Positions 5,605 to 44,163 are shown, counted from the stretch's first letter. The stretch is DNA of 64,000 bases from an uncultured delta proteobacterium (GCA_963745035.1 CAVUVW010000006.1:1-64000), one strand, 5' to 3'. Numbers and translations are program-made. The notes: generated by a model not told the origin, from the sequence alone.

Positions 5605-5724
5605 TATACGCTAACTGACGCGACGATTTAGAGCGCTACGGTCCGTCTGCCCGGCCCTCTCCGTGATGGACTCCCGGCGTGTAGCTGGTTCTCTTTGTCG
5701 TCTTGAATAGGATTGACAATTCAC

Positions 5725-5753
5725 GATCGGATTGAAGCGTCGTACAGTTCAAT
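5725..5753. repeat. 29-bp repeat containing an ATTGAA-N11-TTCAAT dyad (copy 2)
   Basis: GATCGGATTGAAGCGTCGTACAGTTCAAT versus GATCGTATTGAAGCGTCGTTCAGTTCAAT at 4007. Confidence 0.75.
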
Positions 5754-5856
5754 CTCAGGCTAAAAATCTAGTCTTTCCACTCGACGAATACCTGTCACCT
5801 TCGGTTAAAAATCTCAGTTTTCCTCTAATACGGCCCGCGTGATACATGTGTGTGCA

Positions 5857-6850: not shown

Positions 6851-6959
6851 CGCCAGGATTGAATTGAATTCTCCATCAATCGAAAATCCCTAGATTACCT
6901 GTAAAACACCCCGCCTTTGAGCACAGAGCCTTCCTCAAGTTCCGCCCCTGGAATTGTTT

Positions 6960-28260: not shown

Positions 28261-31200
28261 TCAATGAAAATCCCGGCTGCGCGTGCCGGCAGGCTTGAGA
28301 TCCAGGCGCGGCTCCCAAAGCGTTTCGGCGACCAGGTGCACCACGCCGTCTTCGGCTTGCAGCTTGCCGCTGATGCCGAGAAAGCCCGTGGTTTTGGCCA
28401 GCACCGGGTAGCGCTGGAAAACGCTCTCCCACACGACGACGTTGACGAAACCGGTTTCGTCTTCGAGTGTCATGAATACGACTCCGCCCGCCGTGCCCGG
28501 CCGCTGCCGGCAGATCACCAACCCCGCATAACGAACTTTGGCGCCGTCTTGCATCGACGCCACCGTCCGCGCATCAGGCAAGTCCTGACGCACCAGGCCG
28601 GCGCGCAGCGGTGCCAGCGGATGGCGCCTCGTGCTGTGCGACGTCCGGCGATAGTCCCAACCGACTTCTTCGAAGTCGGTGAGCGCGGCGAATGCCGGCG
28701 GCGCCGCGCGCGCCGGCAGCGACAGGGGTTCTTTTTGCGCGCGCGCCAGGCGGCGCACATCCCAAAGCGCCGCGCGCCGGTCAACGCGCAGGCTCTCGAA
28801 GGCCCCCGCCTCCGCCAGCGCGCCGAGAGCCCCTTCATCCAAGCCCGTGCGGCGGGCGAAATCCTCGAGCGACGCGAACGGCGCCCATTCACGCGCACGC
28901 GCGATCTTCTTCCAATCTTTTTCACCGAAGCCTTTGACGTAGCGCAATCCCATGCGCACGGCGAACCGCTCCGCGCTCTCCGCGCACGGCTCCAGCGTGC
29001 AATCCCAATCACTGGTCTGCATGTCGACGCTGCGCATGACTATGCGATGACGCTTGGCGTCTTCGACGATGGTCGCCGGCGAGTAAAAACCCATCGGCTG
29101 AGCGTTCAACAGCGCGCAGGTGAACTCCGCTGGATAGTGGCATTTGAGCCAAGCTGTCGCGTAAGCGATGAGCGCGAAGCTCGCCGCGTGGCTTTCCGGA
29201 AAGCCGTACTCGCCGAAGCCGCGGATTTGCTCGAAGACCCGCTCGGCGAATTCCACAGCGATGCCTTTGGTCCGCATGCGCGTGATCAGCCGTTCACGGT
29301 GGCGCTCCATCCTGCCGGTGCGGTGCCATGCCGCCATGTCGCGGCGAAGCTGGTCAGCCTCGCCGGGCGTGTAATCCGCCACTACCATCGCAAGGCGCAT
29401 CACTTGCTCCTGGAACAGCGGCACGCCGAGGGTTCTTTCGAGCACGGGCTTCAACAAATCATGGGGATAATCCACTTTTTCTTTGCCCTGGCGACGGCGC
29501 AAATACGGGTGCACCATGCCACCGGTGATCGGCCCGGGGCGGACGATGCTGATCTCGATCACCAGATCGTAGAAGTTTCGCGGCTTAAGCCGCGGCAGCA
29601 TCGCCATCTGGGCACGGCTCTCGATCTGAAACACGCCGATCGTGTCGCTTTTGCAGATCATATCGTAAGTGGCTTCATCGTCACCGGGAATCGTTGCCAT
29701 GGAAAGATCGATGCCGCGCTGCTCGCGCAGGAGCTTGAAGCAAAGATCGAGCTGGGTAAGCCCGCCTAGGCCGAGCAAATCGACTTTGAACAGGCCGAGA
29801 TCTTCGACGTCGTTTTTATCCCATTGGATGACCGTGCGCTCTTCCATGGTCGCGTTTTCGATGGGAACCAGCTCGGGAATCGGTTCATGGCCGAGCAAAA
29901 AGCCGCCCGGATGGATCGATAGATGACGCGGAAAATCGAGGATCTCATTGGTGAGCTGGAGTAAATGCTCATGCAGGCCGCGGGAAGCATTGAGACCGAT
30001 TTGTTCGAGCATTTGCGGGCGGACGTTTTCGTAGGACGAAAGAAATTTGGCGGCACGATCGAGAGCAGTCTCCGACAAGCCTAAAGCTTTGCCGATATCG
30101 CGCAGCGCCGAACGCGCGCGGTAGCGCACCACATTGGCCACCAGCGCGGCGCGGTCGCGGCCGTATTTCTGATAAACGTGCTGGATGACTTCCTCGCGCC
30201 GGTCATGCTCGATATCGAGATCGATATCCGGCGGCTCGGCGCGCTCTTTCGAGATAAAACGCTCGAACAAACCTCCGATGAGTTTTGGATTAACGGCCGT
30301 GATGCCCAAGCAGTAGCAAACAACGGAGTTCGCCGCGGAACCGCGTCCCTGGCAGAGAATCGCGTTGGCATGGCAAAACTCGACGATCTCTCGCATGGTG
30401 AGAAAATATCCGGGGTAGTCGAGCGATTCGATGATCTCGAGCTCTTTTTCGATCTGCGCGGCGATGGAATCGGGAATCCCGTCAGGGTAGCGCCGCCGCG
30501 CGCCGTCGAAAGTCTGCTGGCGCAGCCATTCCATCGAGCTCATGCCGTTGGGCAACTGTTCCGACGGATAACGATAGCGGATCTCGCTCAATGAAAAATT
30601 GCAACGCTCGGCGATTTCCAAAGTCCGCCCGACGGCGGCCGGGTCGTCGGCGAAAAGTTGGGCGAACGCATAGGGCGGCTTGAGCCCGTATTCGGCGTTT
30701 GGCTTCAGCTTTCGCCCGCAGGAGGCGACCGGAATACCGTAGCGTATCGCCGTCAAGACATCCTGCAGGCGCCGGCGCGCCGGGTGGTGATAAAGGATTT
30801 CATTGACTGCCGCGATTGGGAAACCAAAGCGCTTAGCGCGCTCGCGCAGCCGCGCTTCGTCGATGATTTCATCTTCGCACCGGTGCCGGACGATCCTCCC
30901 GTAAAACCGATCGCCAAACGCATCGCGAAGGTCGCCGACGATTTGATCCGGATGCATTGCATATCTGGCTGATCCGTTTTCGCCTTCCTGTCCGTCATTC
31001 CCGTGCAAACGGGAATCCGGGTTCGTTGTTCTTGATCCAAAAGCACCCGCCCCGACTTCCGTGTTCGCGGGAGTGACGAACCCTACTTCCCCACCCCACA
31101 GTGCAATCAGCCCCGCCGCATGCGTGCAAACTTCCCCCCACGTGACGACGCTCTCGCCTTTCTCCGAGCGGAGCCGTCCTTTAGTCAATAGCCGGCAGAG

Positions 31201-31464
31201 ATTAGCATAACCGCCGCGATCTTGGCTCAACAGCACAATCGTCGAACCATCGTCGATCGTGACCTGCGATCCAATGATAATTTTCATGCCGAGCTCACGT
31301 GCCTTAATATGCGCGCGCACGACGCCGTAAACTCCGTCGCGGTCCGTCAGCGCGATCGCCGGCAAGCCCAAGCGATGGGCTTCCTCGACTAACTCGTCGG
31401 GATGGCTGGCGCCTTCGAGAAAGGAGAAATTGCTCTTACACCAGAGCGGAACGTAAGAAAACAT
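28261..31464 (-). CDS. dnaE2: Error-prone DNA polymerase DnaE2 (ImuC)
   Basis: [15 protein letters not shown] domain, [35 protein letters not shown]-terminal SRDFH signature. Confidence 0.96.
30994..31077. repeat. REP-like palindromic element inserted in frame within dnaE2
   Basis: GTCATTCCCGTGCAAACGGGAATCC...TTCGCGGGAGTGAC; same family as 54759-54836. Confidence 0.7.
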
Positions 31465-31532
31465 GAAAATAATAGAACCGACCACGAAAATAACAAGGAA
31501 TTGGATGCGTGACTGGCGAAGGGTAACCGAGA

Positions 31533-31599
31533 AGCTAACGTTAAGAGGGCATGATGCGGTTTATCTCGCTCGACAGTGTGGCGTGCGCGCGACTTAGAC
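31533..31599 (-). repeat. Degenerate attC (distal end of array 2)
   Basis: + strand AGCTAAC...CTTAGAC (R'' mutated); 67 bp. Confidence 0.45.
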
Positions 31600-31614
31600 A
31601 AACAGCGCTGCAGG

Positions 31615-31890
31615 GGCAATGAGTTCCACTCCATTCCTTGGACGCGTTGGACGATAGTTTACAGCCGTCAATGGCAAAGGTCTCTTTGCGATCAGCCCGA
31701 GGCATCAGCATAGATCAATACATCACGAAACACTGCGGCGATTTTTCTGGTTACTTATGGGTACAAAGTCAGCGATCATGGTGAGTGTCGTACGACTTGT
31801 ATCGCACCATCGAGTAGAGATGATCTCCGTTTGAGGGATGTGCCTTGCGATTGCAACGTCGTTGCCGCAGCGAAATATAACCTAAAATGA
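31615..31890 (-). pseudogene. IS1182-family transposase remnant
   Basis: Translatable fragments MIADFV...IAAVFRDV...KETFAIDGCKLSSNASKEWSGT. Confidence 0.6.
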
Positions 31891-31901
31891 CTTTTCTACA
31901 C

Positions 31902-31985
31902 CCTCAGCGTGCCGGTTAAGCGCCGCACGCTACCGCATTTGCCTTGGTACTCTATCCATCACGGTCCACCGCAACCGGATTAGGT
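31902..31985 (-). repeat. Degenerate attC after the DUF1772 gene
   Basis: Inner dyad CCGGTT-AAGCG...CCGC-AACCGG; R'' is ACCTAAT, overlapping the stop codon. Confidence 0.5.
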
Positions 31986-32420
31986 CCAAACCAAAAGCCA
32001 GACATACAACCCTGTGGCACCCATGCTCAACAGCGTGCGCACCGCATGAAGACTACCCCATCGCTTCAGCAGCGCCCGCGTTTCCGCCGAGCCGAGTTCG
32101 AGATCCGTGGCGAGGAGCCGGTGATTCGTCGGCATGATTACGATAAAGGTAAAGGGCACGACCGCCCCGATCAGTACCGCCGCCACGAGCCACCCAGCGC
32201 TACCGCCCGTAAACCAGACAGCCATACCGGCGATAGAGCTTACTACTGCCAGAGGAGCTTGCATCCACGTGGCGCGCCGGTAACTCGGCGCCCACTGCAA
32301 TGCGGCGACACGCGTTTCAAGGAGCATGCGCGCCGGATGCTCGGCAACGTTGATGTACAGGGCAGCACCCGCGAACAACGACGCACAAATGACTGCCAAG
32401 AACTCGAACGCTTCAGACAC
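31980..32420 (-). CDS. DUF1772 / anthrone oxygenase-like membrane protein (gene cassette)
   Basis: LFAGAALYINVAEHPAR, PFTFIVIMPTNHRL, WGSLHAVRT. Confidence 0.8.
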   Translation of the reverse strand: MSEAFEFLAVICASLFAGAALYINVAEHPARMLLETRVAALQWAPSYRRATWMQAPLAVVSSIAGMAVWFTGGSAGWLVAAVLIGAVVPFTFIVIMPTNHRLLATDLELGSAETRALLKRWGSLHAVRTLLSMGATGLYVWLLVWT

Positions 32421-32488
32421 CGCTGTGTCTCCGTCGGGACCTAATGTTTGAAAACGAGGCGACTGTAATGGATCACCGGGACTATGGA

Positions 32489-32572
32489 GCCTAAAAGGTC
32501 ATTCTCGGGCCGAGCACACGAAAGAGCCGAAGATCGAAAAGGCGACCCCGGCTCGGCTCGCCGCCGTTGGCT
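32489..32572 (-). repeat. Possible degenerate attC after the amidohydrolase gene
   Basis: + strand GCCTAAA...GCCGAGC...GCTCGGC...GTTGGCT. Confidence 0.35.
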
Positions 32573-32620
32573 AACTCCATGGCGCTAATCCTATGGTGAC
32601 GAAGGTGATATGAAGATCTC

Positions 32621-33856
32621 TCAGCGGACCGGCTGCGTGCGATCCACGGCCGCGCCGCGCAAGATGACCATAGAGATGCGTCGCGTGTTGGTGATGTCGT
32701 CCAGCGGGTTTGCGTCGAGCACGATGAAGTCCGCGCTCTTGCCGGCTTGCAATGTGCCCGTGTCGGCGAGCTGCAGGAATTCGGCTGAATTACGCGTCGC
32801 CGCTACGATCACCTGCATCGGCGTCATCCCAGCGCTCACCATGTCCAACATCTCTTCGTGCGGCCCCCACGGCCGGTTGCCGTCGGTGCCGAGCGTGATG
32901 CGCACGCCCGCCGCGTTCAGTTTCGCCAGATTGCGCGCCTGAATCCCGAAGAGGGCCTGCGCCTTTGGCCGGTCCGTGTTGGCCGCTTCGAGCTTCTTCA
33001 ACTCATCGGCCGGAAGGCCCGCCCGCAGCCAGCTTAGATCCACCTTCACGCCGCGATCCGGCAGGTTCGGCGTGAGCACCAGATTCGGCCGCTGCTTGAA
33101 CATGGCCACCAGTTCGTCGTCGATGTCCTTGTCGCGAATGCCGTGCGCGAACGCGTCGAGTCCGGCACGGATGAGGCCCTTCGCATCCTCGAGCTCGAAG
33201 ATATGCGCCGACACCCGCAGTCCTCGCTTGTGCGCATCGGCGATAATGGCGCTATAGATTTCCGGGGTCATCTTCTGATACTTGCCGTCCCTTGCATCGA
33301 CCCAGATCTTGACGATGTCGACCTTGTTCGCCGCCAACTCCTCCACCGCCTTGCGCCCCTCCGCCGCGCTCTTGACCCAGTAGGGCACGGTGGTGCGCCC
33401 CGGCTCGGGCATCGTGATGCCGCGCCCTGCGCTACGAAACCGCGCGACGCCGGGAATCGTCTCGTTGCGCATATCGAGCAGTCCATAACCGTCGGTGCCC
33501 ATGCTCAGCGCGGCACTCACGCCGTAGTAGGCGCGCATTTTTAAGTCCTGTATCAGCGCTTCGCGGGTCTCGCTGAGATGGACGTGAGTGTCGATGATCA
33601 TCGGCATCACGGTCTTGCCGGCGAGGTTCACGCGCGCGGCGCCGGCGGGCACGCGGACGTCGGCGGCCGCGCCGGCCTGGGCGATCTTGGCGCCGTCCAC
33701 GATCAATGTCGCCTTCTCAATCACCCGTCCGTCCCCCACGATCAATCGCGCGCCTTCGTACGCCGTGACGGACCGTTCGGAGGTCGGAACCGCGCATCCG
33801 CCAAGGAAACCAAGAGCAACGATTGCCGCGACTACAACTACATTCACTCGGTGCAT
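32621..33856 (-). CDS. Amidohydrolase-family lipoprotein (gene cassette)
   Basis: Lipobox LGGC; PMIIDTHVH, LGTDG, GKSADFIVLDANPLDDI; GGAGG RBS just after the attC GTTAGAA. Confidence 0.85.
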   Translation of the reverse strand: MHRVNVVVVAAIVALGFLGGCAVPTSERSVTAYEGARLIVGDGRVIEKATLIVDGAKIAQAGAAADVRVPAGAARVNLAGKTVMPMIIDTHVHLSETREALIQDLKMRAYYGVSAALSMGTDGYGLLDMRNETIPGVARFRSAGRGITMPEPGRTTVPYWVKSAAEGRKAVEELAANKVDIVKIWVDARDGKYQKMTPEIYSAIIADAHKRGLRVSAHIFELEDAKGLIRAGLDAFAHGIRDKDIDDELVAMFKQRPNLVLTPNLPDRGVKVDLSWLRAGLPADELKKLEAANTDRPKAQALFGIQARNLAKLNAAGVRITLGTDGNRPWGPHEEMLDMVSAGMTPMQVIVAATRNSAEFLQLADTGTLQAGKSADFIVLDANPLDDITNTRRISMVILRGAAVDRTQPVR

Positions 33857-33879
33857 GGGAACCTCCTCCATAAATATGT

Positions 33880-33939
33880 TTCTAACGCCTGAACTAACCC
33901 GAGCCGCGGAGCGGTGTCGGCTTGAAAGAATTGTTAGAC
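33880..33939 (-). repeat. attC site (60 bp)
   Basis: Minus strand GTCTAAC...GTTAGAA with internal dyad AGCCG/CGGCT. Confidence 0.75.
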
Positions 33940-33969
33940 AACAACTGTTCACCTCCTGTATCGGACATT

Positions 33970-34055
33970 GCATAACGCTATGCCGCTGAGCCGCTGTTAC
34001 ATTCGAAATCACCCGTCATGGACTCTTGCCGTCGGCTCCAGCGGCGTTGTTAGAC
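33970..34055 (-). repeat. attC site (86 bp)
   Basis: Minus strand GTCTAAC...GTTATGC; inner GCCGCTG-AGCCG/CGGCTC-CAGCGGC dyad; R'' flank CCGTCTAAC is complementary to this cassette's start GTTAGACGG. Confidence 0.85.
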
Positions 34056-34075
34056 GGTTTACCCAAACGCGTAAG

Positions 34076-34585
34076 CTATGAAGCCGCCATAACTTCCCCA
34101 CAATTCTTGCAAGTCCGAAATTCCCTATTTTCGAAGAACCGCTGATAAGCCTTAGAAACAGGATCGTCTCGATAGTCTTTCACGATGAACGTTTCCTCAT
34201 GGAGCAAAGCATCACACTTCTGGCAAAACCAATGGAAACGATCGATTTCGCCTTCATGCCGCTTGCGCTCCAGCACGAAAGTGAAGGTGTCGGGCGCACG
34301 ACGGGGTGAGTGTGGTACGCCGGCTGGAATGCGAATGACCGATCCTTCGGGAATGGCAGCAATCTCTTCTCGACCTGACGCCGTCCGATAATGCAGGCGC
34401 ATCTCTCCCCTAATCATGTATATGACTTCATCGCTTGGGTTCGTGTGAAACTCGGAGCGGTACTCCCGTCCTCGAGCGACAAAAGCGACGGACTCAGACT
34501 CCTGCCACTGGACGCCGACCGCCTTGCCGCTCTCGGTGAGCTGCCGATATTGATCCGCTAGGTTAACGATTGAGATCAGAGACAT
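34076..34585 (-). CDS. 3-hydroxyanthranilate 3,4-dioxygenase-like cupin (gene cassette)
   Basis: RSEFHTNPSDE, PAGVPHSPRR, rubredoxin-like WFCQKC and RTCKNCG. Confidence 0.8.
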   Translation of the reverse strand: MSLISIVNLADQYRQLTESGKAVGVQWQESESVAFVARGREYRSEFHTNPSDEVIYMIRGEMRLHYRTASGREEIAAIPEGSVIRIPAGVPHSPRRAPDTFTFVLERKRHEGEIDRFHWFCQKCDALLHEETFIVKDYRDDPVSKAYQRFFENREFRTCKNCGEVMAAS

Positions 34586-34635
34586 AAGATACCTCCATTC
34601 TAAGGTGAGACCGTAGGCGTCTACGACGAAATGCC

Positions 34636-34695
34636 GTCTAACGTTTTGGGTGAGAGGCGCGGTCCGCCGCGTCGGTCTCAACCCAATGGTTAGAC
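34636..34695 (-). repeat. attC site (60 bp)
   Basis: GTCTAAC-GTTTTGGGTGAGA...TCTCAACCCAATG-GTTAGAC palindrome. Confidence 0.88.
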
Positions 34696-34763
34696 TCGCA
34701 TTGCATTACCCCGGAAGAGTGAGCAATGTGCATACGACCTCCTCGTGTCTTCACATCGAACAG

Positions 34764-35513
34764 TCACTTCCGCGGAGTGCGATTTTCTGGCGCTACGTGG
34801 ACGCCTCGCCAGCCAGAGTCGTTGATTGCGCGCTGCACTAACCCCGAGGCCTTGGCCTCTTCGATGAACTCGCTGATGTAGGCAAGCCTCCCGGGCTGCC
34901 CCTTCGGGACGGCCATCGCTGTAAAGTTCGCTCCAAAACAGTCCTCCAGCACCCGCGAGCCGGACAATCTGGTGGAGAACTCTAGAAGCGCTGGACGGGT
35001 CGATGCCCACGCGTCCACATCTTCGGTACGCAGCAGGTCGAAAGCAATGTCGGGAGTCTCCGCGCTGATCAGTTCGGCATGTTTCCGTATGCGGTTCAGA
35101 CACAACGTCGAGGCGTGGTTGCGTACAACCGCGATACGGGCGTCGGGGCAGTCGGCATCGGCGACGTTTTGAATTGAGGAGTCGACCGCCACCAAATAGG
35201 TAAAATCAAATTGAAGAACCGCGGGTGAGAAATCTATCTCGGAAGTCTGAGATTCATCCATCGCTCCAAACCCCACATCACACGCGCCGGCCTTGAGGCC
35301 TTCCATCGCCCTAGGAGGAGTTGGATATTCGACCGGCAAGAACTCAACCCCGATCCGCGCTGCTAGCGCGCGAGCGAGTTCGATCGTCCACCCGCGCAAC
35401 TCGCCGGTTGTCGGATCCTTCGCATATTGCGGTGGATACAACGCGACCCGGACTATGCCGGCCCGCACGAGATCCGCGATTCTCGGGTCGGGCACCTGTT
35501 GAACATCGGTCAC
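34764..35513 (-). CDS. Transporter substrate-binding domain protein (gene cassette)
   Basis: TGELRGWTIELARALAARIG, FIEEAKASGLVQRAI. Confidence 0.8.
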   Translation of the reverse strand: MTDVQQVPDPRIADLVRAGIVRVALYPPQYAKDPTTGELRGWTIELARALAARIGVEFLPVEYPTPPRAMEGLKAGACDVGFGAMDESQTSEIDFSPAVLQFDFTYLVAVDSSIQNVADADCPDARIAVVRNHASTLCLNRIRKHAELISAETPDIAFDLLRTEDVDAWASTRPALLEFSTRLSGSRVLEDCFGANFTAMAVPKGQPGRLAYISEFIEEAKASGLVQRAINDSGWRGVHVAPENRTPRK

Positions 35514-35552
35514 AACACCCTCGTTTCCGCGTTCGTACTCACTCCTGCTAGC

Positions 35553-35610
35553 GTCTAACTATTAAGTGAGCTGCCATACGCACCGACAATTACTGGTCGG
35601 CTTATCCCAG
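35553..35610 (-). other. attI-like site 2 (head of array 2)
   Basis: Minus strand GGGATAAGC...TCACTTAATA/GTTAGAC; 16 bp identical to attI-1; no matching R'' hairpin upstream. Confidence 0.7.
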
Positions 35611-35810
35611 CGACTGCTCGGACAACAAAAGGTCAAATCGCTAACAATATCCATCCGCTAACATTACGTTGTCAACAATAAGTCTTCCGCCAAAAGCCGA
35701 CCGGGACAGCGGCCCTATTTCCTCAACGATCGGCGGCTTATCTCCGCCATCGAGATTCTCTTCTATAGCCGGCAGGACTGTTGACGCCTCTACCGACCTA
35801 CCCTCCTCGG

Positions 35811-36090
35811 TTATCCGACAAACCGTAGCGATTGCTTATTAGGGAACGCTTTCGGCAATTTATCTTCTCGTTTCCGGTCGAACCGCGCCTGAAGATCGAG
35901 CCAGTACCGCTCGGACATGCCGAAGTAGTGCGCGAGGCGATGCGCGATGTCGGCGGTGATCGGGCGTTGGCCCTCGACGATCTCGTAGATGCGGCGGACC
36001 GGCACGCCGATGTCCCTTGCGAGATGCCAGACGCTGATGCCGCGCGGGAGCGAGAAACTCTTCCAACAAGATTCTGCCGGGATGTATCAT
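35811..36090 (-). CDS. higA: HigA-family antitoxin (frameshifted), no adjacent toxin
   Basis: [12 protein letters not shown]...[40 protein letters not shown]. Confidence 0.8.
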
Positions 36091-36582
36091 TGGAAATCGT
36101 CCTTAACTTTCTGGTTCAAGACGTTCAAATCGTTCAAGCAGTTCAAATCGTTTCGGAAGAAGCCGAAGAGATCGGAACTTTTGGGACGATTTGTTGCGGT
36201 ATATTTTGATCCTTTCATGCCGCTGCTTTTCAAATATTCGATCAGATTACTGATCATGATCGATAAGCGCCGGAAGGACTTGCTTGCGGCGTCACAATCT
36301 TTCGGCGCCATATAAGATTGATCCAGAGCCACGTAAAGCTGCGAACGAACTTCCCCGCACGATGCTTTGGCGACATAGAGAAACTGAATAAATTCTTGAT
36401 TACCACCCCGCTCGAATCCTTCCGCTATGTTCGACATAATGGAGACTGCTGCCCGCCGTATTTGATCCCGCAGACCGAAATCTTTCGAGAATTTTGAGTC
36501 TCCTGTCAGTTGATAAATTCCTCGCGTCAAGGCGCGGGCATCTTTCCAAATTTCCAGATCTTCAAAATTTTTTCACTTGCAT
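36087..36582 (-). CDS. Four-helix-bundle protein (23S rRNA intervening-sequence family)
   Basis: [52 protein letters not shown]. Confidence 0.9.
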
Positions 36583-36638
36583 TGTTAGTTTCCTCCTTAA
36601 ACGATTTGAACTTTTTGAACGGCTTGAACGATTTGAAC
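36114..36638. repeat. 40-bp inverted blocks of 9-mer GTTCAA repeats flanking the four-helix-bundle gene (36114-36153 and 36599-36638)
   Basis: GTTCAAGACGTTCAAATCGTTCAAGCAGTTCAAATCGTTT versus AAACGATTTGAACTTTTTGAACGGCTTGAACGATTTGAAC. Confidence 0.75.
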
Positions 36639-36644
36639 CCCTCG

Positions 36645-38254
36645 TTACTCAATCGCTCCCTGCCAAAACCACCTTCTTCTCACCCGGTCGTAATACAGCC
36701 AGAGGAGATCGCCGGCGCGGGTTTCGGCGTAATAGTATTCGCGCTGAATCTCGCGATTCCACCAGCCGCCGGAAAAAACATACGGGCCGGTGAGTTTGTC
36801 GATGCTGCCGTATTTGGGGCCGAGCATGAGCCAGCCGTCTTCGTGCGAGTGATAAGGCCCGCCGTGGAGGCGCCGCGGCTTGGCAAAGACCCGGCGCACT
36901 AACGTATTCGGAGTGGACTCGTTCAAGCCGTTCAAATCGTTCAACCGCTTGCGGAGCCGGCCCTGAGCCCTTCGACTTCGCTCAAGATAAACTCCGTCGA
37001 AGGGTTCAACACGTTTTTGGGGAGTTTGACGCGGCTCACGGGCTCCCAAACAAAGCGCGCTTCGGGAAGATGGCCGTCGATGAGTTTGGCCCAGACGACG
37101 GAGTGTTCGCCGAACTCGGCGCGCAGGCGGGCGAGTGCGCGGTTGGCCGCGTCGAGATCGCGGCTCGGCCCTTCGACTTGGTCACTCTGTTCGGCGAACA
37201 GGCGCAGCTGCTCGCTGGTGGCGGCGCAGGTTTCCGCGCCAAGCTCGATTTCGCTCACGCCCGCGGCCACTTGCAGCGACTCCAAACGCAGACGGATCAA
37301 ATCCAGGATCTGGCTGGCATCGAGAGTCGGAACCGCGGCGCGGAGCGACTCTCTGAGCCAGTCGCCATGGTCGATCAGCAAAGACAGCCGGATCGCCACC
37401 ACGGCTTGATGGCGCGCCGCCAGAGTCGCAAGCAGCGGATGCAACAATTGCTTGATGAGAAACAGCAGCCGCGTGCTGTTGTTTTCGGCATCGTCGAGAA
37501 TTTGTTTTTCCACGGCGGGCTCGTCGGGCGCCTGGGGTTCGAGCGGCGTCCAGAGATCGCCGGCGGCGAGGCGATGAAGCCGGTGCGCTTCCTTGCCGAA
37601 GCGCTCGCGCAATCCGCCCGGCGGAAGCGCGAGCAAGTCGCCGACGGTTTTGATGCCGAGCTGGAAAAGCGTGTCGCGAAATTTGGGGTCAATATGCAAA
37701 CGGTTAAGCGGAATCTTCCTCGCGGCGGCGTGCTCATCGGCGGGATTGAGAAAAACCGTAACGTTCTTTTTCGCCTTGGCCACGGCGTAGCTGCCAAAGC
37801 GCGTGAAGCCGACCGCGAGGCTCGCGGCAAATCCCTGAGCTCTGAGATCTCTGTGAATGGCGTAGGCCCATTTTTCCGCCGAGGCATAGAGGCGCCGCAA
37901 GCCGGCGCCGTTGAGCCAAAAGACGCCGGGCTCGTCCGCCGCAGGCTCGACTTCGGGCGTAAAGCTCATGAAGCGCTGGGTCAGTTCGCCCACGGCTTTT
38001 TTTATTTCCGCCGGCGGCACTGCGCCGGCGCGCAGCGCCGAAGCCAGAGAAAAGGCGGCGGCGTAGCGCAAGCCGGGCAACACGCCCTGCTGCCGGGCCT
38101 TTTCGTTGACCCAGAGAACCACTCCCTGCGGCTTGTCTTCAGCTACCACCGCCGCTGGATAAGCGCTCCACTCGGGATGGCGCCGCAGCAGGAGCTGAAG
38201 AGGAAAGGCCGGCAGATCAACACAGGCCAGCCGGCCCGGTGTAGAGCTTTTCAT
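36645..38254 (-). CDS. imuB: ImuB, inactive Y-family polymerase-like protein (frameshift within a repeat insertion)
   Basis: LACVDLPAFPLQLL, SFTPEVE, LGIKTVGDLLALP, LARLRAEFG; C-terminal GPYVFSGGWW...REYYYAE...LWLYYD. Confidence 0.88.
36921..37010. repeat. REP-like palindrome plus GTTCAA repeats inserted inside imuB
   Basis: CCCTTCGACTTCGCTCAAGATAAACTCCGTCGAAGGG and GTTCAAGCCGTTCAAATCGTTCAACC. Confidence 0.7.
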
Positions 38255-38813
38255 AATGCCATGTCGGGCCACGCCGTTTGTCCTTGAGCACGCGCAAAGC
38301 GCAGGCGAAGCGATTGTCTGCCGTCCGTTTCTTCTCGGCATGAACGCGCAGCGAAACCAACGAGCCCAAAGAAAATGCTGCGCTGCTTTTATCGGTGAGG
38401 CAAACCAAAGCGGCGTGATGGCGCTGCGCCAAACCGGTCAAGCGGGTCTGCAGCGGCATGGGAATATCGGCGGCGCCGAGATCGAGCACGACCAGGCCGA
38501 AGCCGCCGGAGCGCAAAAGTTTTTCGCCGGCGCGCGGGATGCTCTGGCGTTCATTGAGACGCACGACCACGAGCGCCGCCAGATCAACGCCGCAGCGCTC
38601 CGCATCGGGCGGATAGAAAGAAGTTTCCGAAGAAGTCACCCAGGCTACCGGCTCGCCACGCTTGTGGGCTTCGCGGACCAAGTCGAAAGCGATGGTCAGC
38701 GCCGCCGACCCGGTAGAGCTCGATATCTCCACCAGCCGCCCGGCGAGATTTCCGAGCACCCACGGCGTCGGTGAACCAGCGGGATGAAGTTTTTGCGCGG
38801 AAAATAAGATCAT
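38217..38813 (-). CDS. imuA: ImuA (RecA-like) protein
   Basis: GRLVEISS, FYPPDAERCGVDLAALVVV, LLRSGGFGLVVLDL; overlaps the imuB start. Confidence 0.85.
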   Translation of the reverse strand: MILFSAQKLHPAGSPTPWVLGNLAGRLVEISSSTGSAALTIAFDLVREAHKRGEPVAWVTSSETSFYPPDAERCGVDLAALVVVRLNERQSIPRAGEKLLRSGGFGLVVLDLGAADIPMPLQTRLTGLAQRHHAALVCLTDKSSAAFSLGSLVSLRVHAEKKRTADNRFACALRVLKDKRRGPTWHYEKLYTGPAGLC

Positions 38814-38944
38814 GGACAGGATCTCCGTGAACTGGACATGCGCGGAGAGCGCGATCGACAGCTTCAGGAGGGATTCCTTCAGCTACTGCCCGGCAAGTAT
38901 CGTCGTATTTGAAAGATGCAGAAACGAAGGTAAGAGGATCAATT

Positions 38945-39062
38945 ATCTAACGCCCGCGTGGACCGGCCCGCACGCGCTACCAAACGCCGCGCGCGCATAA
39001 TCTCTCCCGCACGCTCAGCGCGCTAAATTGTTCACGGTCTGCTCCAACGCGCGTAGAGGCGC
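38945..39062 (-). repeat. attC site, R'' degenerate (distal end of array 1)
   Basis: + strand ATCTAAC-GCCCGCGTGGA...TCCAACGCGCG-TAGAGGCGCT; the flank AGGCGCT matches this cassette's start GTTAGGCGCT. Confidence 0.6.
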
Positions 39063-39078
39063 TCAATCGAGTGGCCAT

Positions 39079-39456
39079 TCAATCAAGGAACTTCCACGAT
39101 GCCGCACCGTCGAGGTGCCGGATCCGCACTCCGGCAAGAGCAGAAGGCTCGAAGTTGACCGCGTTCACTGCAATGGTCGTGTTGCGGCGTTTCTTCCGAT
39201 ACGCATAGTGGGTGACGCAACCACATTTCTTGCATCGATAATAAACGCGAATCTTCCGGTTCCATGAATATTTCGATAGGCCGCCCTTGGGAGCTTCAAT
39301 TTTAACCGAACTCGCAGCGTAGTAAGCCCAGAGCGCGCCATAGCGGCGGCAGATCGAACAATTGCAGCTCGTTAAAGTGCGCGATAGCCGTCGAACGTAA
39401 ATCCGAATCGCGCCACAGTGACACGTGGCCGCAAGCGCTGCGTTGCGGTGATCCAT
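39079..39456 (-). CDS. GFA/CENP-V family protein (gene cassette)
   Basis: TCHCGAI, CNCSICRRYG, CKKCGC. Confidence 0.88.
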   Translation of the reverse strand: MDHRNAALAATCHCGAIRIYVRRLSRTLTSCNCSICRRYGALWAYYAASSVKIEAPKGGLSKYSWNRKIRVYYRCKKCGCVTHYAYRKKRRNTTIAVNAVNFEPSALAGVRIRHLDGAASWKFLD

Positions 39457-39459
39457 AGC

Positions 39460-39522
39460 GCCTAACCGGATTGAGCTCAGCCGCCGCGCTTTTCAGCGGT
39501 CGGCTGCAGCGGCTTGTTCGGC
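39460..39522 (-). repeat. attC site (63 bp)
   Basis: Minus strand GCCGAAC...GTTAGGC; dyad GCTCAGCCGCCGC/GCGGTCGGCTGCAGC. Confidence 0.85.
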
Positions 39523-39594
39523 CTGCCTTACCCCGTGGCATAGGTTGGAGTTGACTCACCGGGACCTTTTCATCCTCCAACATGACGCCCTTGA

Positions 39595-40473
39595 TCATGC
39601 GCGGGTCAATACGAAGTCGTAGTCCATGGTGTGGAACGGGCGATCCATCTGGCGGCCGTCAGGCGCCTTACCGGGCTGATGCCGCGGGAAGTCTGCGATC
39701 AGCCCGTCCCGTACCGAAAAGGCAGCGTCCCGGTCGAGGTACTCACTGCCGCGCACGCAGATTTGCGTCACCAGGGTGTCGTGGCCATCGGCCTCGATCA
39801 TGAAGTGAACGTGCGCCGGCCGCCAGCCCCCGTTCGAGGTATACTTGACCAGGTCGCCCATCCCCCCGTCATTCGGGACTGGATAGCCGATGGGGACGAC
39901 CGTCCAGAACGAATAGCGACCGTCCGGCTCGCTCTTCAATTGCCCCCGCGTCCGCATTCCGTCCTTGGCCAGGTCACCCTGCACGTCGTACAGTCCCCGC
40001 CCGTCCGATTGCCAGACGTTGATGGTCGCGTTTGGAACAGGCCGACGATCGATCGCGAGAATACGCCCCGAGACGTAGAGAGGCTCGCCCGCGACGTCTT
40101 CGGCGATGTCGGCGCCGTTCGCGAAAGAGGGTGCGTTCGGAAGGAAGAACGGTCCGAGCACGCCCGGCAGCGTCGCGCCTTCCGGCTTCGGTTGCGATAT
40201 CTGGATCACCAGGGTTTCGAGCCCGAGCATCTCGGCGAGCGCGAGGAATTCCTGCCTGCCGCCCTTGCAGTAACCGCCCAGCTGGACCAGATAGTTCATC
40301 GCGAAGAGGTACTCGTCGCCGGTCAGCCGCACGTCGCGCGCAAAGCCATGCAGATGCTTGATCAGGCTCAAGATGATCTCGCGCAGGCGGGGGCCCGTCG
40401 TAGCTTGGTAGCGGGTTAGCGCTTCCTTCGTGATCGCCTCTTCGGCAGCGGCATTTTTCCCTTCCGTAGTCAT
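39595..40473 (-). CDS. Intradiol ring-cleavage dioxygenase (hydroxyquinol/catechol 1,2-dioxygenase-like) within array 1
   Basis: VLGPFF, VWQSDGRGLYDVQ, YPVPNDG, WRPAHVHF. Confidence 0.88.
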   Translation of the reverse strand: MTTEGKNAAAEEAITKEALTRYQATTGPRLREIILSLIKHLHGFARDVRLTGDEYLFAMNYLVQLGGYCKGGRQEFLALAEMLGLETLVIQISQPKPEGATLPGVLGPFFLPNAPSFANGADIAEDVAGEPLYVSGRILAIDRRPVPNATINVWQSDGRGLYDVQGDLAKDGMRTRGQLKSEPDGRYSFWTVVPIGYPVPNDGGMGDLVKYTSNGGWRPAHVHFMIEADGHDTLVTQICVRGSEYLDRDAAFSVRDGLIADFPRHQPGKAPDGRQMDRPFHTMDYDFVLTRA

Positions 40474-40613
40474 GAACGTGTCCTCCGATTGTTGGTGACG
40501 GTTTTCAGGGCCGCTTCCACCTCACTCAACTCCTCGCCGTAAAAGTGGTTCTCAACGGCCGCCTAGTTCGGCATCTGGTTGTCTCCATACTTGCTTTCCG
40601 TGGCAGGTTTTCG

Positions 40614-40683
40614 GGCGAACGCTAGCGGTCACCGGACGGAGCGAGCAACGCGAGTCCCGATCCGGTGCACTGCATTGTTAGCC
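40614..40683 (-). repeat. attC site (70 bp)
   Basis: Minus strand GGCTAAC (contains the stop TAA)...GTTCGCC; dyad GCGGTCACCGGA/TCCGGTGCACTGC. Confidence 0.88.
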
Positions 40684-41250
40684 AGAGACGCCAAGCACCC
40701 CCAGGACCTCGTCCCAGTGGCTGCAGAACGCCACACCCACCGGGCAATCATCGATCTGTGTTCGCCCGTGTTGCAGCCAGACACGCCGCAATCCTTCCAG
40801 CCGTACGTCGCGGAGGTGTCGAACATCATCGTCGATAAGGACATGAGCGCCGATCTGGTGACACACCTGCTCCTTGCTGGAGTCGTGCGACGTTATGACC
40901 TCCCTGATGGAAAGCGCAAGACCCATTCGCTCGAGCCACTCTCGAGCGTAGGCAATGCGATGCAGCCGTCTGTTAGTAACGACGAACACATCTCCAATGA
41001 CTGTGAGGGCACGAAGCGCGTTTGCAGCGCCGGGGACTTCCGCTGCTGCCAGGGTGCTCTCACGTTCGTACACGTAGTCGTTCATTTCCTCATATGGACT
41101 TTTCCCAATGAGAGGCACGCAATCAGTGCGATTGCATTGCCACGGCTCTACGTCCCGGCCCACATGTGTCTTGATCCACTTCATCGCCTCGGCATTGGTA
41201 TTCGCAATCGTGCCGTCGTAATCTACCGCGATGATCAGTCTTGTACTCAT
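40678..41250 (-). CDS. HAD-superfamily 5'(3')-nucleotidase-like protein (gene cassette)
   Basis: IAVDYDGTIA, FVVTNR, VLIDDD; cassette start GTTAGCCAGA is complementary to end TCTGGCTAAC. Confidence 0.82.
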   Translation of the reverse strand: MSTRLIIAVDYDGTIANTNAEAMKWIKTHVGRDVEPWQCNRTDCVPLIGKSPYEEMNDYVYERESTLAAAEVPGAANALRALTVIGDVFVVTNRRLHRIAYAREWLERMGLALSIREVITSHDSSKEQVCHQIGAHVLIDDDVRHLRDVRLEGLRRVWLQHGRTQIDDCPVGVAFCSHWDEVLGVLGVSG

Positions 41251-41263
41251 CCAGGCCCTTTCT

Positions 41264-41353
41264 GGCTAACGTCGTGGTGAACGGCGGGCCGCAGCGACGG
41301 TCTTTGCGTTGGCACGGTGGTTCGCGGCCCGTCCGTTCCACCTAGAGTTAGAG
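41264..41353 (-). repeat. attC site (90 bp)
   Basis: Minus strand CTCTAAC...GTTAGCC; dyad GGTGAACGGCGGGCCGC/GCGGCCCGTCCGTTCCACC; 12-bp complementarity TTGCGCTCTAAC to the first-cassette start. Confidence 0.9.
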
Positions 41354-41363
41354 CGCAAAAGGC

Positions 41364-41852
41364 TCAATGCGCCTCCTTGGCGAGGCGGTCATCACGCTCG
41401 CGCAGCAGCCAGTAGACCACGCCGAGCACAAGGGTTGCTCCAGCCAGCGCCGCAATGGTGCTTGCGGCGGTGGCGCTGGAATCGAGAATGACGAACTTGC
41501 GACTCAACGCAATGAGCGCGATGAGCACCACGGTCTTGACCTGGATGATGCTCGAGCGCCGAAGAGCAACGCTAACAATCGAATGCTTGAATTCCATGGC
41601 GATGAGCAGCGTCATGATCATGCCAAAGAGCGCCTGAAAGACGTCATGTTCCAGTGGATCTATCGCGCCGCTAAGCAACAGCGGCACGATGCGGATGACC
41701 AGCTGCACGAGCGCTAGGGCGATGACCACTGAGATCACGAGACTCAGAACGATCGCAACAATCTGCTCGAAGCGCTCGTAAACGGACATGATCGGCCAAT
41801 GCTCACGTGTTTCCGCAAAGAACTTCCGCGGCGCGTGGCGTTTGTTGTCCAT
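41364..41852 (-). CDS. PsiE-like membrane protein (first cassette of array 1)
   Basis: YERFEQIV, LLIAMEFKHSI, VLIALIALSRKFVILD. Confidence 0.85.
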   Translation of the reverse strand: MDNKRHAPRKFFAETREHWPIMSVYERFEQIVAIVLSLVISVVIALALVQLVIRIVPLLLSGAIDPLEHDVFQALFGMIMTLLIAMEFKHSIVSVALRRSSIIQVKTVVLIALIALSRKFVILDSSATAASTIAALAGATLVLGVVYWLLRERDDRLAKEAH

Positions 41853-41876
41853 TTGTCGCTCCGTTCTTGCCTTGCG

Positions 41877-41935
41877 CTCTAACTATTAAGTGAACGAATT
41901 AGACTAACCTTGTGTTGGCCGCTTATTCCCAAAGC
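41877..41935 (-). other. attI-like site 1, downstream of intI
   Basis: Minus strand GGGAATAAGC...TCACTTAATA/GTTAGAG; begins the first cassette; no full-length attC hairpin. Confidence 0.75.
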
Positions 41936-42089
41936 ATGTTTCACTGAAAAATATCAAAATTACCAGCTTTATCGTCCACTTTTCTGTTGCAAGTCAAGGT
42001 TCTTATGATCAGCAATTGCGGCCAGTTTGACCGCCTATCACTCTATTGGCCCGCAGCCTATTCCGGAGACCACAGGGTAGTTCAAGTCT

Positions 42090-43168
42090 TTAGAGACGGT
42101 CTGCCGGGCTTCGAACGCCTCTACCGCCGCGATCAATACATGCGTATAAATCATGGTCGTGCTGACATCGCGGTGACCGAGCAACTCCTGCACCGTCCGG
42201 ATATCGTACCCATCCTCCAATAAATGCGTCGCGAAAGAGTGTCGTAAAGAATGACATGTGGCTGGTTTTGGTATCCCGGCATTGCGAACAGCCTCGCGCA
42301 CTGCTTTTTGTAGCACCGATTCATGGAGATGATGCCGGTACTGCAATCCGGTGTGGCGGTCAATGTAGTATCTTGTCGCAGGAAACACCCATTGCCATAC
42401 CCATTCTCGGTTAGCGTTTGGATATTTCCTATCCAGCGCGTTCGGCAACACAACTCGCCCTAAATTATTCTCAACATCATACTGGTGTTGTCGTTTGCCA
42501 TTGTTGAGATGCTTAGTGAGTGGTTCTTTCACAGCTGTAGGAAGCATCGTGTAACGGTCCTTGTCTCCCTTTCCAGCGCGTATAACGATTTGGTTTTGCG
42601 AAAAATCAATGTCTTTTACCCTGAGCCGGCAACATTCCATGAGCCGAAGGCCGGCGCCGTAAAGCAATGTCGCCATGATTTTTTCGGTTCCTGTAAGCTG
42701 ATTCAGTAGGCTTTGGATCTCCGCACGGGTCAATACGACCGGCAACCGTAGAGCTTTTTTCGCGCGTACTACGCCGTTCACATAACCGATCTCTTTTTCT
42801 AATACCTGGTGATAAAGAAACAGCAATGCGTTCAGGGCTTGGTTCTGCGTGGAACCGCTCACCTTTGATTCGGCTGCCAAATTAGAAAGGAAACGCGCTA
42901 TTTCCGGTTCCGCCATTTCTGCAGGGTGCCGTTTATTGTGGAAAAAGATGAACCGTCTGATCCAATGGACATAGCTGCCTTCAGTCTTGGGACTGTAGTG
43001 TCGGGTGCGGATTGCCCGGCGCACTTGATCGAGCAATTTCGGCTTCATCGCCGTGGCTATCGACCGAACGCCGGCTGCGGCGTTCAATCCACCGTCAATC
43101 ACCGCGAGCGTACGGGTTGGCTGCCTGGGTGCGTCAATGTTCATCATCCTAACCGCTCTCCTTGTCAT
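42090..43168 (-). CDS. intI: Integron integrase
   Basis: [34 protein letters not shown], IntI-specific insertion ([28 protein letters not shown]), [28 protein letters not shown]; one added base restores the canonical [15 protein letters not shown] end at 42090. Confidence 0.95.
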
Positions 43169-43264
43169 CCGCGTCTCGCAGCACCCCCTCTAGGGTTGAC
43201 GAGGAATGACGGAACGAAGCTTGGCACAACGCTGGATAAGCTTCCGCCCGTACTGCAGCGCAGT

Positions 43265-43350
43265 GTTCAAACCGTTCAAGAGTTCAAGGTTCAACGCTGG
43301 AGAAACAAAAACAGTCTAGAGAACTTTGAACTTTCAACCTTGAACTTTTT
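43265..43350. repeat. Inverted pair of GTTCAA tandem repeats between lexA and intI
   Basis: GTTCAAACCGTTCAAGAGTTCAAGGTTCAA...TTTGAACTTTCAACCTTGAAC. Confidence 0.65.
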
Positions 43351-43364
43351 AGTCCCCCGCCCAC

Positions 43365-43974
43365 TTAGAATTTTCTCAGCAATCCCACCACCCGCCCCAC
43401 GATGCGGAACTCCCCTTCGGAGACAGTGATCGGCGGGTACTTTTCGTTCTCCGCCTTGAGCGTGACGACGCCGTCTTTCTCGAAGAACCGCTTGAGCGTC
43501 GCCTCGCCCTCGATCACCGCGCACACGATCTCGCCGTTCTCCGCACTGCCCTGCTGCTTCACGATTACCCGGTCGCCGTCGAGGATACCGGCGCCGATCA
43601 TGCTGTCGCCTTTGACCTGCAGCGCGAACCTTTTTCCGCTGCCGATGTCGTCGGGAATGGTGATGGTGCCTTCGAAATTTTCTTCGTTTAGGAGCGGCTT
43701 GCCGGCGGCGATCCTGCCCAGAACCGGCAGCCTGGCGGGTCGGGCTAATGGCCGCTTGGCCCAAAGCGTTGACGATCTCGATGGCGCGCTTGCCGACGCG
43801 GCGGATATAGCCCTTTTTCTCCAAGGCCTTCAGATGATCGGAGACGCCGTTAGTCGAAGTGATCTTGAACTGCCTGCCGATCTCGTGCATCGACGGTGCG
43901 AAGCCCTTCTCGCGAATGGTTTTGAGCAGAAAATCGTAGATCGCTTTTTGCCGGGAGGTCAGCTCGGGAAGCAT
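43365..43974 (-). CDS. lexA: LexA repressor (frameshifted)
   Basis: [37 protein letters not shown] wHTH; GRIAAG cleavage site; KGDSM and EATLKR catalytic dyad. Confidence 0.93.
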
Positions 43975-43981
43975 GGTTCAC

Positions 43982-44010
43982 CATATACTGAAAATATTTT
44001 CAGTAGTCAA
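43982..44010 (-). promoter_or_regulatory. lexA promoter with perfect 20-bp palindrome (candidate SOS box)
   Basis: TTGACT-N17-TATATG; TACTGAAAATATTTTCAGTA (43986-44005) covers the spacer; ATG lies 7 nt after the -10. Confidence 0.8.
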
Positions 44011-44163
44011 GACGCGCCCTCATTCAGTGGCATCGACGAGCTGAAAAAATCATGGGCGCGGCATTTCAAACCAGTTTTTTCATTTTTCCCCGCACGTCAG
44101 GAGCGTCCCGACTTGACGCGGATTCGGCGACCGGCGTATTTTCGGAGCAATGGGAGGTGATCC

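Follow-up and report, generated by a model that had tools for sequence, protein, structure and literature searches.

Two probable tandem chromosomal integrons, the second without its integrase gene, in the lexA-imuA-imuB-dnaE2 locus of a Candidatus Binatia genome

Sedentary chromosomal integrons, as portrayed in the sections of Cury et al. 2016 (PMC4889954) drawn on here, combine an integron-specific integrase gene (intI), an adjacent attI recombination site, a promoter-like site facing the array, and cassettes made of an open reading frame (ORF) plus an attC site that carry accessory functions, at a chromosomal position that is fixed across species; opposite orientation of intI and cassettes is the most frequent arrangement. 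The same sections propose that clusters of attC sites lacking an adjacent integron integrase (CALINs) arise by integrase loss, intI pseudogenes lying near 15 of 279, and leave open whether such arrays are fossils or working platforms. Here we describe a 64,000-nucleotide stretch of a Candidatus Binatia metagenome-assembled genome (MAG) (GCA_963745035.1, CAVUVW010000006.1:1-64000; the whole stretch is referred to as the window) that very probably holds two co-directional tandem chromosomal integrons in its lexA-imuA-imuB-dnaE2 locus, the second of them lacking intI. A complete integron and an integrase-less one are both of known kinds; it is their setting that is unusual.

The locus shares with sedentary chromosomal integrons the features listed above and differs from them in three respects: intI runs in the direction of the cassettes, attI lies 3' of the intI stop codon, and two integrons stand in tandem, nested among SOS genes. 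Co-directional ('inverted') integrons have been described, for example in Treponema. The genes lexA, imuA, imuB and dnaE2 reportedly form an SOS mutagenesis set; all four families are present in the window, all on the minus strand, several of them frameshifted in the assembly. Along that strand the order is lexA, the intI of integron 1 (intI-A), four cassettes, imuA, imuB, a four-helix-bundle gene (4HB), a higA-like gene, an intI scar, the attI-bearing head of integron 2 (head B), cassettes and dnaE2. SOS (LexA) control of integron integrases is said to depend on a LexA box located in the promoter of intI. The present locus is alike in tying the integrase to the DNA-damage response, the link here being the position of intI within the SOS mutagenesis cluster; no LexA box was identified in it, no search aimed at the operator having been made.

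A preliminary description of this DNA had seen in it a single integron whose one integrase serves two homologous attI sites, each at the head of its own array, and much of what it reported about the sites themselves was borne out. The same 16-mer, TCACTTAATAGTTAGA, heads both arrays in exact copies at 41893-41878 (site 1) and 35569-35554 (site 2), both on the minus strand and the only two in the window; with up to three mismatches allowed there were still two matches against 0.07 expected, and two or more matches were obtained in 0 of 100 shuffles. The GGGA(A)TAAGC motif lies upstream of both copies (GGGAATAAGC and GGGATAAGC; Table 1), starting 37 and 39 nt before the respective starts of the 16-mer, and the TTGAC hexamers are found at 41997-41993 and 35675-35671. 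A consensus promoter match (TTGACA-18-GATATT, 10/12) is present at site 2 only and is the sole such match in 35400-43400. The reported complementarity between the start of the first cassette and its own R'' box held for site 1, where it extends over 12 nt (GTTAGAGCGCAA, 41883-41872, against TTGCGCTCTAAC, 41358-41347). At site 2 it covers 7 nt (GTTAGAC against GTCTAAC, 34695-34689) and is weak taken alone because GTTAGRC has just two common forms.

Crossover is predicted to occur at G41883/T41882 in site 1 and at G35559/T35558 in site 2. The core may be viewed as the imperfect inverted repeat CTCAC-6 nt-GTTAG, in which strands would be exchanged at G/TT, and as a putative conserved attI core of the lineage. 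In attI1 of class 1 integrons the simple site is likewise an imperfect inverted repeat around G/TT with direct repeats upstream. By analogy, and with no claim of sequence similarity, heads of the type found at site 2 resemble attI1 in architecture, three GATAAGCCG-like motifs lying upstream of the core as putative accessory binding sites.

The arrays behind the two sites were delineated with an attC covariance model built from nine attC sites of G000, the window's own genome, and run over the whole window with filters off. The seeds had been chosen downstream of heads by a crude palindrome finder; the model is therefore not independent of the hypothesis, and the scores of both window seeds are inflated by construction. 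It replaced cruder finders that had returned 1 or 0 sites, 7 sites, or 651 mostly spurious hairpins. Minus-strand matches in the window were confined to the two arrays, namely 41353-41264 (15.1 bits, E 0.34), 40683-40614 (45.7 bits, seed) and 39522-39460 (31.7 bits, E 6.6e-5, non-seed) in array 1, and 34695-34636 (63.2 bits, seed), 34055-33970 (33.9 bits, E 2.2e-5, non-seed) and 33939-33880 (14.3 bits) in array 2. The model detected no attC after the fourth ORF of array 1, whose last attC is decayed and ends GTTAGAT at 38950-38944, and none beyond 33939-33880 in array 2. A gradient from crisp proximal to decayed distal sites, previously reported for both arrays, is clear in array 2 and true of array 1 only in part. 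As expected of sites that are not themselves attC, no match was obtained over 41878-41935 or 35554-35610 at E up to 10, nor on the head itself at any of 14 head loci. With attC sites in the arrays downstream of both 16-mers and none at the 16-mers, the arrays are real and the site at the head of each is not an attC, which supports the assignment of both sites as attI-type junctions. Most genomes of the genus contain copies of the 60-nt attC at 34695-34636 that are 85-95% identical to it, many genomes having more than one; this attC thus belongs to a family conserved in sequence and is not a site defined by structure only.

Near-identical strains are present in soils and rhizospheres sampled by 10 studies. 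Contigs from four metagenome runs of four studies (X1, X5, X9 and X10), compared over 31000-44200, bear on the same junctions; X1 is possibly the source sample and hence not independent, and a run lacking cover over part of the window is evidence neither way there. In one X1 contig the PsiE cassette is joined at 41883 to an attI-like left arm unlike that of the window, and in contigs of X1 and X10 a first cassette ~90% identical to that of array 2 is joined at 35554 to other upstream sequence. The cassette boundary given by these joints thus coincides with the predicted crossover at site 1 and lies 4-5 nt or less from it at site 2. Two X9 joints (41273/41879 and 41905/42097), considered as a strain devoid of cassette 1, were left unused: they do not form an exact G/TT product, their sides measure 26-27 nt, and they may come from another organism.

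The integrase gene of integron 1 occupies 43168-42038, on the strand of the cassettes and upstream of site 1, which corrects its earlier placement; attI-A consequently sits 3' of the intI stop. Its product belongs to the integron integrases (TIGR02249, 445 bits with a cut-off of 265, profile positions 1-301/315; PF00589 and PF13495 also match) whose best public match, at 82%, belongs to a Candidatus Binatia MAG. An integron-specific integrase, an adjacent attC array and an attI next to intI with a G/TT junction would make integron 1 complete, judging from sequence. That it carries the only intI of the G000 assembly was confirmed by tblastn (one 100% match, the next best being a 31%-identical XerD-like gene).

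The two heads are very unlikely to be copies of one another. Comparison by blastn revealed no similarity between them beyond the core and the GGGA(A)TAAGC motif, and a profile of the heads of the site 2 type did not match site 1 at E 0.01. Among 61 genomes compared, including G000 (7.4 Mb, 28 contigs, 92.6% complete), the 3' ends of intI fall into several intI/attI classes with related cores. Class-A intI ends GVQSPADRLL... and is followed by a site-1-type head at L110, L111, L112 and L125; L110 comes from an unpublished genome (G005), and the statement also rests on the other three loci. Class-B intI ends GRGVNSPADRL and a stop codon, with a class-B head directly 3' of it in G021:C75 (L121, E 5e-56) and G007:C165 (L126, E 8.5e-51). 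Over 200 nt, the head of site 2 shares 78% identity with the one that follows class-B intI in G021. Site 1 and site 2 thus belong to different attI/intI classes (A and B, respectively) with the core alone in common; the core, CTCACTTAATAGTTAG, is identical in classes A and B, and two otherwise dissimilar heads carry the same 16-mer because that core is common to several classes.

Foremost among the evidence that integron 2 once had its own integrase gene is a trace which the preliminary description had itself set against its proposal, that of a second intI upstream of site 2. It is present as a ribosome-binding site and the last ~12 codons. In G015 the higA-like gene ends ...KQSLRYAG and a stop codon, followed by AAGGAGGG and, 3 nt on, by the ATG of intI. 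In the window the same gene ends ...KQSLRFVG (stop codon 35813-35811), followed by CCGAGGAGGG up to 35801 and then by GGTCGGTAGAGGCGTCAACAGTCCTGCCGGCTATAGA in place of the ATG, and GGAGGG (35806-35801) aligns with the intI ribosome-binding site of G015. Thereafter, 35795-35770 is identical at 23 of 26 bases to the codons RGGRGVNSPA of the class-B intI of L126 (RGGRGVNSPADRL, then stop); the local alignment score of 20 compares with a best score of 14 in 2000 shuffles, none of which (0/2000) reached 20. A ribosome-binding site joined to intI 3' codons implies an almost exact deletion of the second intI, reaching from the start codon to a point ~12 codons short of the stop. An NRGG stretch upstream of site 2 was also considered as intI codons and discarded, the alignment with G015 showing the intI ribosome-binding site there, so that the 3' remnant is 35795-35762 only.

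The presumed ancestral layout is found in a sister species, at G014:C15, where lexA, 4HB, intI, ~14 kb of intervening sequence, imuA, imuB, 4HB, a higA-like gene and a second intI follow one another on one strand, with an array after each intI and both intI free of stop codons. The imuB/4HB/higA group lies directly upstream of intI in G015, G033, G006, G014 and G017, and a higA-like gene followed by intI is seen in G018 as well. More generally, 14 of the 29 intI loci of relatives in this family and order have an SOS-cluster neighbor in their 1.5-kb flanks (12 of 25 when the unpublished G005 and G035 loci are set aside): lexA and/or 4HB at seven loci, imuB/4HB/higA at five and dnaE2 at two, intI lying directly after lexA, after imuB-4HB-higA or after dnaE2. 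The corresponding count for intI loci from other phyla, with flanks of up to 3 kb, is 2 of 80. A literature search at the level of titles for an integron with imuA, imuB or dnaE2 returned general SOS papers only. Repeated siting of intI in the lexA-imuA-imuB-dnaE2 cluster within one genus would physically couple cassette shuffling to induced mutagenesis.

Integrase loss is not confined to the window. At the site 1 position of G019:C30, lexA-4HB is followed by the last ~30 codons of a class-A intI and a class-A head, and that genome has no intI after imuB-4HB-higA either. G003:C32 has imuB-4HB-higA, ~300 nt of other sequence, LLNRGGRGVNSPADHL with its stop codon and a class-B head, that is, the position of the window with another junction. 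Smaller intI remnants precede the heads at L013, L015, L019 and L026. As read from these junctions, loss of intI with retention of the head recurs independently, and is the integron-to-CALIN route proposed in the part of Cury et al. 2016 (PMC4889954) cited above. At L015 (G033:C362) the intI 3' end (..VYTHVLNRGGR) is fused straight to the core 15-mer, the upstream part of the head being gone.

We thus propose that integron 2 very probably once carried an intI of its own, located between the higA-like gene and site 2, and lost it through a ~1-kb deletion running from just past the ribosome-binding site to ~12 codons before the stop. The attI-B/Pc head (35797-35555) was left, followed by an array in which three attC can still be recognised. 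Each array would have been built by its own integrase before the deletion, and head B may have served since then at least as a promoter for array 2. The intI genes are probably expressed with, or by read-through from, the upstream SOS genes. Array 2 in its present state is a CALIN or degenerate integron, with three attC and a scar of ~50 nt as its only trace of intI, the nearest intI being that of integron 1 some ~6.5 kb upstream. It and the other orphan arrays described below are like CALINs, as these are defined in the cited sections of PMC4889954, in having attC without adjacent intI, and differ from them in keeping an attI and promoter head at the start of the array.

Several points weigh against this reconstruction. 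The 3' scar comprises no more than 26 aligned bases and CTATAGA, and the higA-scar-head junction of the window was matched contiguously in 0 of 30 genomes of the genus; with the deletion junction present in no relative searched, the order of events is deduced from other species. The two attI cores of G014 do not match the window 16-mer at up to three mismatches, so what G014 documents is the arrangement of the locus and not the classes seen in the window. Class-B intI genes standing next to heads are defective (a TAG stop at L121, truncation at L126), none being intact in the 61 genomes; all five class-B intI copies seen are defective, those of L129, L172 and the window being remnants. Finally, the metagenome contigs are short, with joint sides of 21-47 nt.

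Table 1. Features of the window and intI loci of relatives that bear on the two integrons
Feature	Position	Strand	Basis or content
lexA	43365..43974	-	PF01726 72.8 bits, residues 4-62; S24-type C-terminus in another frame, shift near 43730
GTTCAA/TTGAAC 9-nt repeats, inverted arrays, lexA-intI gap	43255..43345	.	relatives have a four-helix-bundle gene at the same position
intI, integron 1 (class A)	42038..43168	-	TIGR02249 445 bits; 1-nt frameshift near 42132
attI-A region	41878..42037	-	TTGACT 41997-41992; GGGAATAAGC 41930-41921; core 16-mer 41893-41878
array 1, four cassettes	38944..41882	-	Pfam, attC model, sequence
array 1 cassettes	PsiE-family 41852-41364; NT5C/HAD-like 41250-40678; intradiol dioxygenase 40473-39595; GFA-family 39456-39079	-	Pfam
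imuA	38813-38217	-	RecA-like PF00154 31.9 bits; NF033429 38 bits, under cut-off of 150
imuB	38341-36650	-	PF00817 39.3 bits; frame change near 36950, C-terminal part in other frame
four-helix-bundle (23S rRNA IVS protein family) gene, 4HB	36087..36530	-	PF05635 99.2 bits; TIGR02436 102.6 bits
higA-like antitoxin gene	35811..36090	-	TIGR02607 57.7 bits for 36041-35814; 1-nt frameshift near 36049
intI scar, integron 2	35762..35810	-	ribosome-binding site GGAGGG 35806-35801 joined to last ~12 codons, 35795-35762
attI-B/Pc head	35555..35797	-	TTGACA-18-GATATT 35675-35646; GGGATAAGC 35608-35600; core 16-mer 35569-35554; profile E 6.4e-56
array 2	31900..35558	-	Pfam, attC model
array 2 units	SBP_bac_3 35513-34764; 3-HAO cupin 34681-34076; ORF-less unit; amidohydrolase to 32621; anthrone-oxygenase-like 32420-31980	-	Pfam
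dnaE2 (error-prone DNA polymerase), downstream of array 2	28261..31485	-	NF004225 1357.6 bits against cut-off of 939
SOS-linked intI loci of relatives	L110, L113-L116, L118, L119, L121-L123, L127, L130, L134, L135		

Heads of the site 2 type are not restricted to the window. G000 contains nine exact copies of the core 15-mer and further near-copies, and a genome scan identified at least 13 class-B and two class-D heads that lack an intI, most of them with attC downstream. The conserved head module measures ~220-240 bp and always ends GTTAG, beyond which copies diverge. In class B it contains TTGACA-17/18-GATATT, three GATAAGCCG-like repeats and the stretch GCGGCTCACTTAATAGTTAG, and the class-B profile finds 13 copies at E <=4.4e-13 in G000, site 2 (35780-35555) among them. 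Among the 12 class-B heads other than site 2, eight are followed within 0.5-1.3 kb by a correctly oriented attC at E <=0.01, one is followed by a weak match (E 0.18) and three by none, six of the attC matches downstream of head loci being seeds of the model. The two class-D heads (TCACTCAATAGTTAG), which have ATATACG-type repeats in front of them, are separated by 3.4 kb (C21:136234 and C21:139612; L157), each followed by attC; they match the heads found after intI genes of the type ending GKGVRSPADGL and a stop codon at L115, L127, L130 and L135, and no intI was found near them in G000. Folding of 21 distinct class-B heads with RNAalifold gave -2.6 kcal/mol and no convincing stem, and the idea of the head as a structured RNA or folded site was dropped for want of a conserved fold. 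The left edge of the other orphan heads (GCGTCGTTCAGTTCAATCC) was likewise rejected as an intI remnant, the similarity being too weak and the edge coinciding with a hairpin element discussed below.

Across the relatives, the core 15-mer (<=1 mismatch) was found in 36 of the 61 genomes (31/36 in the same family, 4/5 in a second family and 0/19 in a third), and intI-like matches at E 1e-20 in 24 of the 61, many of them fragmentary. At that threshold 13 of the 36 core-bearing genomes have no intI match, and 8 of these 13 are at least 90% complete.

Two orphan heads differ in cassette content between species. The counterpart of the C10 head (18642-18425) in G015:C5, between flanks that are 96% identical, is decayed and runs straight into GTTCGGCAAA..., which is the G000 sequence past the first attC (read head-G/TTCGGCAAA...); G015 is therefore minus exactly cassette 1, with the boundary at G/TT. 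The C27 head (53213-53001) lies between flanking genes shared by more than 20 genomes of the genus. A class-B head stands at equal distance from the upstream gene in G018, G029, G027 and partly G003, is displaced in G014 and G021, and G004 has just 258 nt between the flanking genes. From the head to the last attC no match of at least 150 nt is shared among species at this locus; distal to the last attC, 74-95% is shared. No intI was found at the C27-locus counterparts. In G018:C41 (L186) the gene that comes first behind the orthologous orphan head, at a distance of ~170 nt, codes for a tyrosine recombinase with 30% identity to IntI across 304 residues.

These patterns are as would be left by an integrase acting in trans; repeat deletion, or homologous replacement through head and flanks, would also give them. 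That orphan heads are served by an integrase encoded elsewhere is plausible, and an addition to the deletion scenario in which site 2 and the other orphan heads are landing pads, served here by IntI-A, is the alternative that survives best, even though we rate it below an even chance. It draws on the identity of the core between classes A and B, on the single-cassette difference between the C10 head and G015:C5, on the unrelated proximal cassettes found between the same C27 flanks in the absence of intI, and on class-B heads being the commonest when class-B intI is defective in 5 of 5 cases. Weighing against it, no relative shares the site 2 deletion, so that a comparison at site 2 itself is lacking; IntI-A is frameshifted past its catalytic tyrosine in the assembly, in X1 and in X5; class 1-3 integron integrases prefer their cognate attI; and the array differences could equally result from homologous exchange anchored in head and flanks. 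The core-bearing genomes that have no intI match show, in addition, that heads persist sans integrase, which fits promoter or fossil status. More speculative still, and in our view doubtful, is the extension of this idea to the whole group, according to which the Binatia integron is a distributed system where a few integrases of the SOS cluster serve in trans at least 12 dispersed attI-promoter pads of one core, the pads keeping fixed places across species, swapping proximal cassettes and possibly relocating between copies of the hairpin.

The frame of intI-A moves by 1 nt after IYTHVL near 42132; the usual tail continues in the other frame, with a canonical end at 42090. Contigs of X9 and X10 have one extra base after 42132 and are unshifted, those of X1 and X5 reading as the window. 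Relative to the genes of related genomes, four such single-base frame changes are seen within 8 kb, at ~43730 in lexA, ~42132 in intI, ~36950 in imuB and ~36049 in the higA-like gene. The change in the higA-like gene is an extra C compared with L115, L118 and L171, X5 and X10 contigs have one base fewer at 36049 and at 43730, and one X5 contig has an extra base after 36950, so that unshifted forms of all four genes are seen in near-identical contigs of other runs, that of imuB in this one contig. Either strain differences, amounting to decay of the whole SOS/integron locus, or errors of the assembly consensus may account for the four frameshifts.

An unlikely alternative is that the orphan heads, rather than being fossils left in place, are movable modules of attI, promoter and a few cassettes, which would move from one copy of a ~75-nt hairpin to another. 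The class-B heads at C10, C11, C13, C14, C17 and C26 begin immediately behind a hairpin, either complete or represented by its 3' half, and have no SOS-locus gene nearby. Moreover, G027:C57 is devoid of the entire block of head, two cassettes and hairpin that in G000:C10 is flanked by a 33-nt direct repeat, the two genomes being 99.9% identical downstream and 95% identical upstream. Deletion in G027 by recombination between the two repeats would give the same pattern, and the hairpin is unmatched by the attC model and occurs behind ordinary ABC substrate-binding genes as well. Site 2, for its part, lacks the hairpin and clearly decayed where it stands.

The single integron of the preliminary description, with two homologous attI platforms built and served by the integrase at 43168-42038, is a very improbable reading. 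One intI in a 7.4-Mb assembly, an identical 16-mer at both sites and an array at each are what it would predict, and it fails on the intI scar upstream of site 2, on the two intact integrases at the same positions in G014 and on the different classes of the heads, each of which accompanies its own intI type in relatives. Had it held, the rule that an integron has a single attI would have been called into question. A recent duplication of site 1, for instance by unequal exchange, can be set aside, as the identical 16-mer and similar order of motifs stand against heads that blastn finds alike in nothing but core and GGGA(A)TAAGC, site 2 grouping instead with ~12 class-B heads at 71-80% identity and with L010 and L011 of other families in the order.

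With the loss of a second integrase gene retained as the explanation of site 2, the attI and promoter kept by integrase-less arrays offer a sequence handle on the question whether CALINs are fossils or working platforms. In this group the question can be put to the test through the one-cassette difference at the C10 head and the unrelated cassettes at the orthologous C27 head, and it is the orphan attI heads across the genome that deserve further attention. IntegronFinder, as presented in the portion of PMC4889954 consulted for this comparison, seeks attI by exact match to classes 1-3 only, so heads of the present type would go unreported. Insertion of cassettes at non-att genomic sites, termed attG, is reported in the available part of bioRxiv 10.1101/2022.09.11.507474. 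The orphan arrays are alike in having cassettes away from the integron's own attI and differ in that their sites are ~220-bp conserved attI/promoter modules homologous to intI-adjoining heads, rather than minimal GTT targets.

Some further observations concern the surroundings of these elements. A search of 31000-44500 against Rfam at E up to 1 gave a chance match only (PK-BYV, 22.4 bits against a gathering score of 50). At 20598-20077, on the minus strand, the window encodes a fragment of a XerD-like tyrosine recombinase (ORF of 174 amino acids; TIGR02225, 248 bits, below cut-off), which is the second-best match of IntI in the genome. The hairpin element (AGGATTGAACTGAA...TTCAGTTCAATCC) has 45 profile matches in the genome, with copies in the window at 3997-4041, 5726-5757 and 6855-6884 (plus strand) and others at C11:128-150 kb, C13:1.118-1.126 Mb and C14:129-136 kb; the attC covariance model gave no match to it at window 3997-6884. 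It sits after the stop codons of ABC substrate-binding genes or after an attC R' box, forms the left edge of several orphan heads, and ends a 96.6%-identical duplicated segment (C11:147168-148115 and C13:1123646-1124598).

Inverted arrays of GTTCAA/TTGAAC repeats bracket the 4HB gene (36645-36600 and 36160-36110) and are present also at ~36941-36915. Arrays of the same kind occur without a 4HB gene between lexA and intI (43345-43255), where relatives carry one, and metagenome contigs skip 36152-36614, the 4HB region. The 4HB gene thus looks like a presence/absence insertion.

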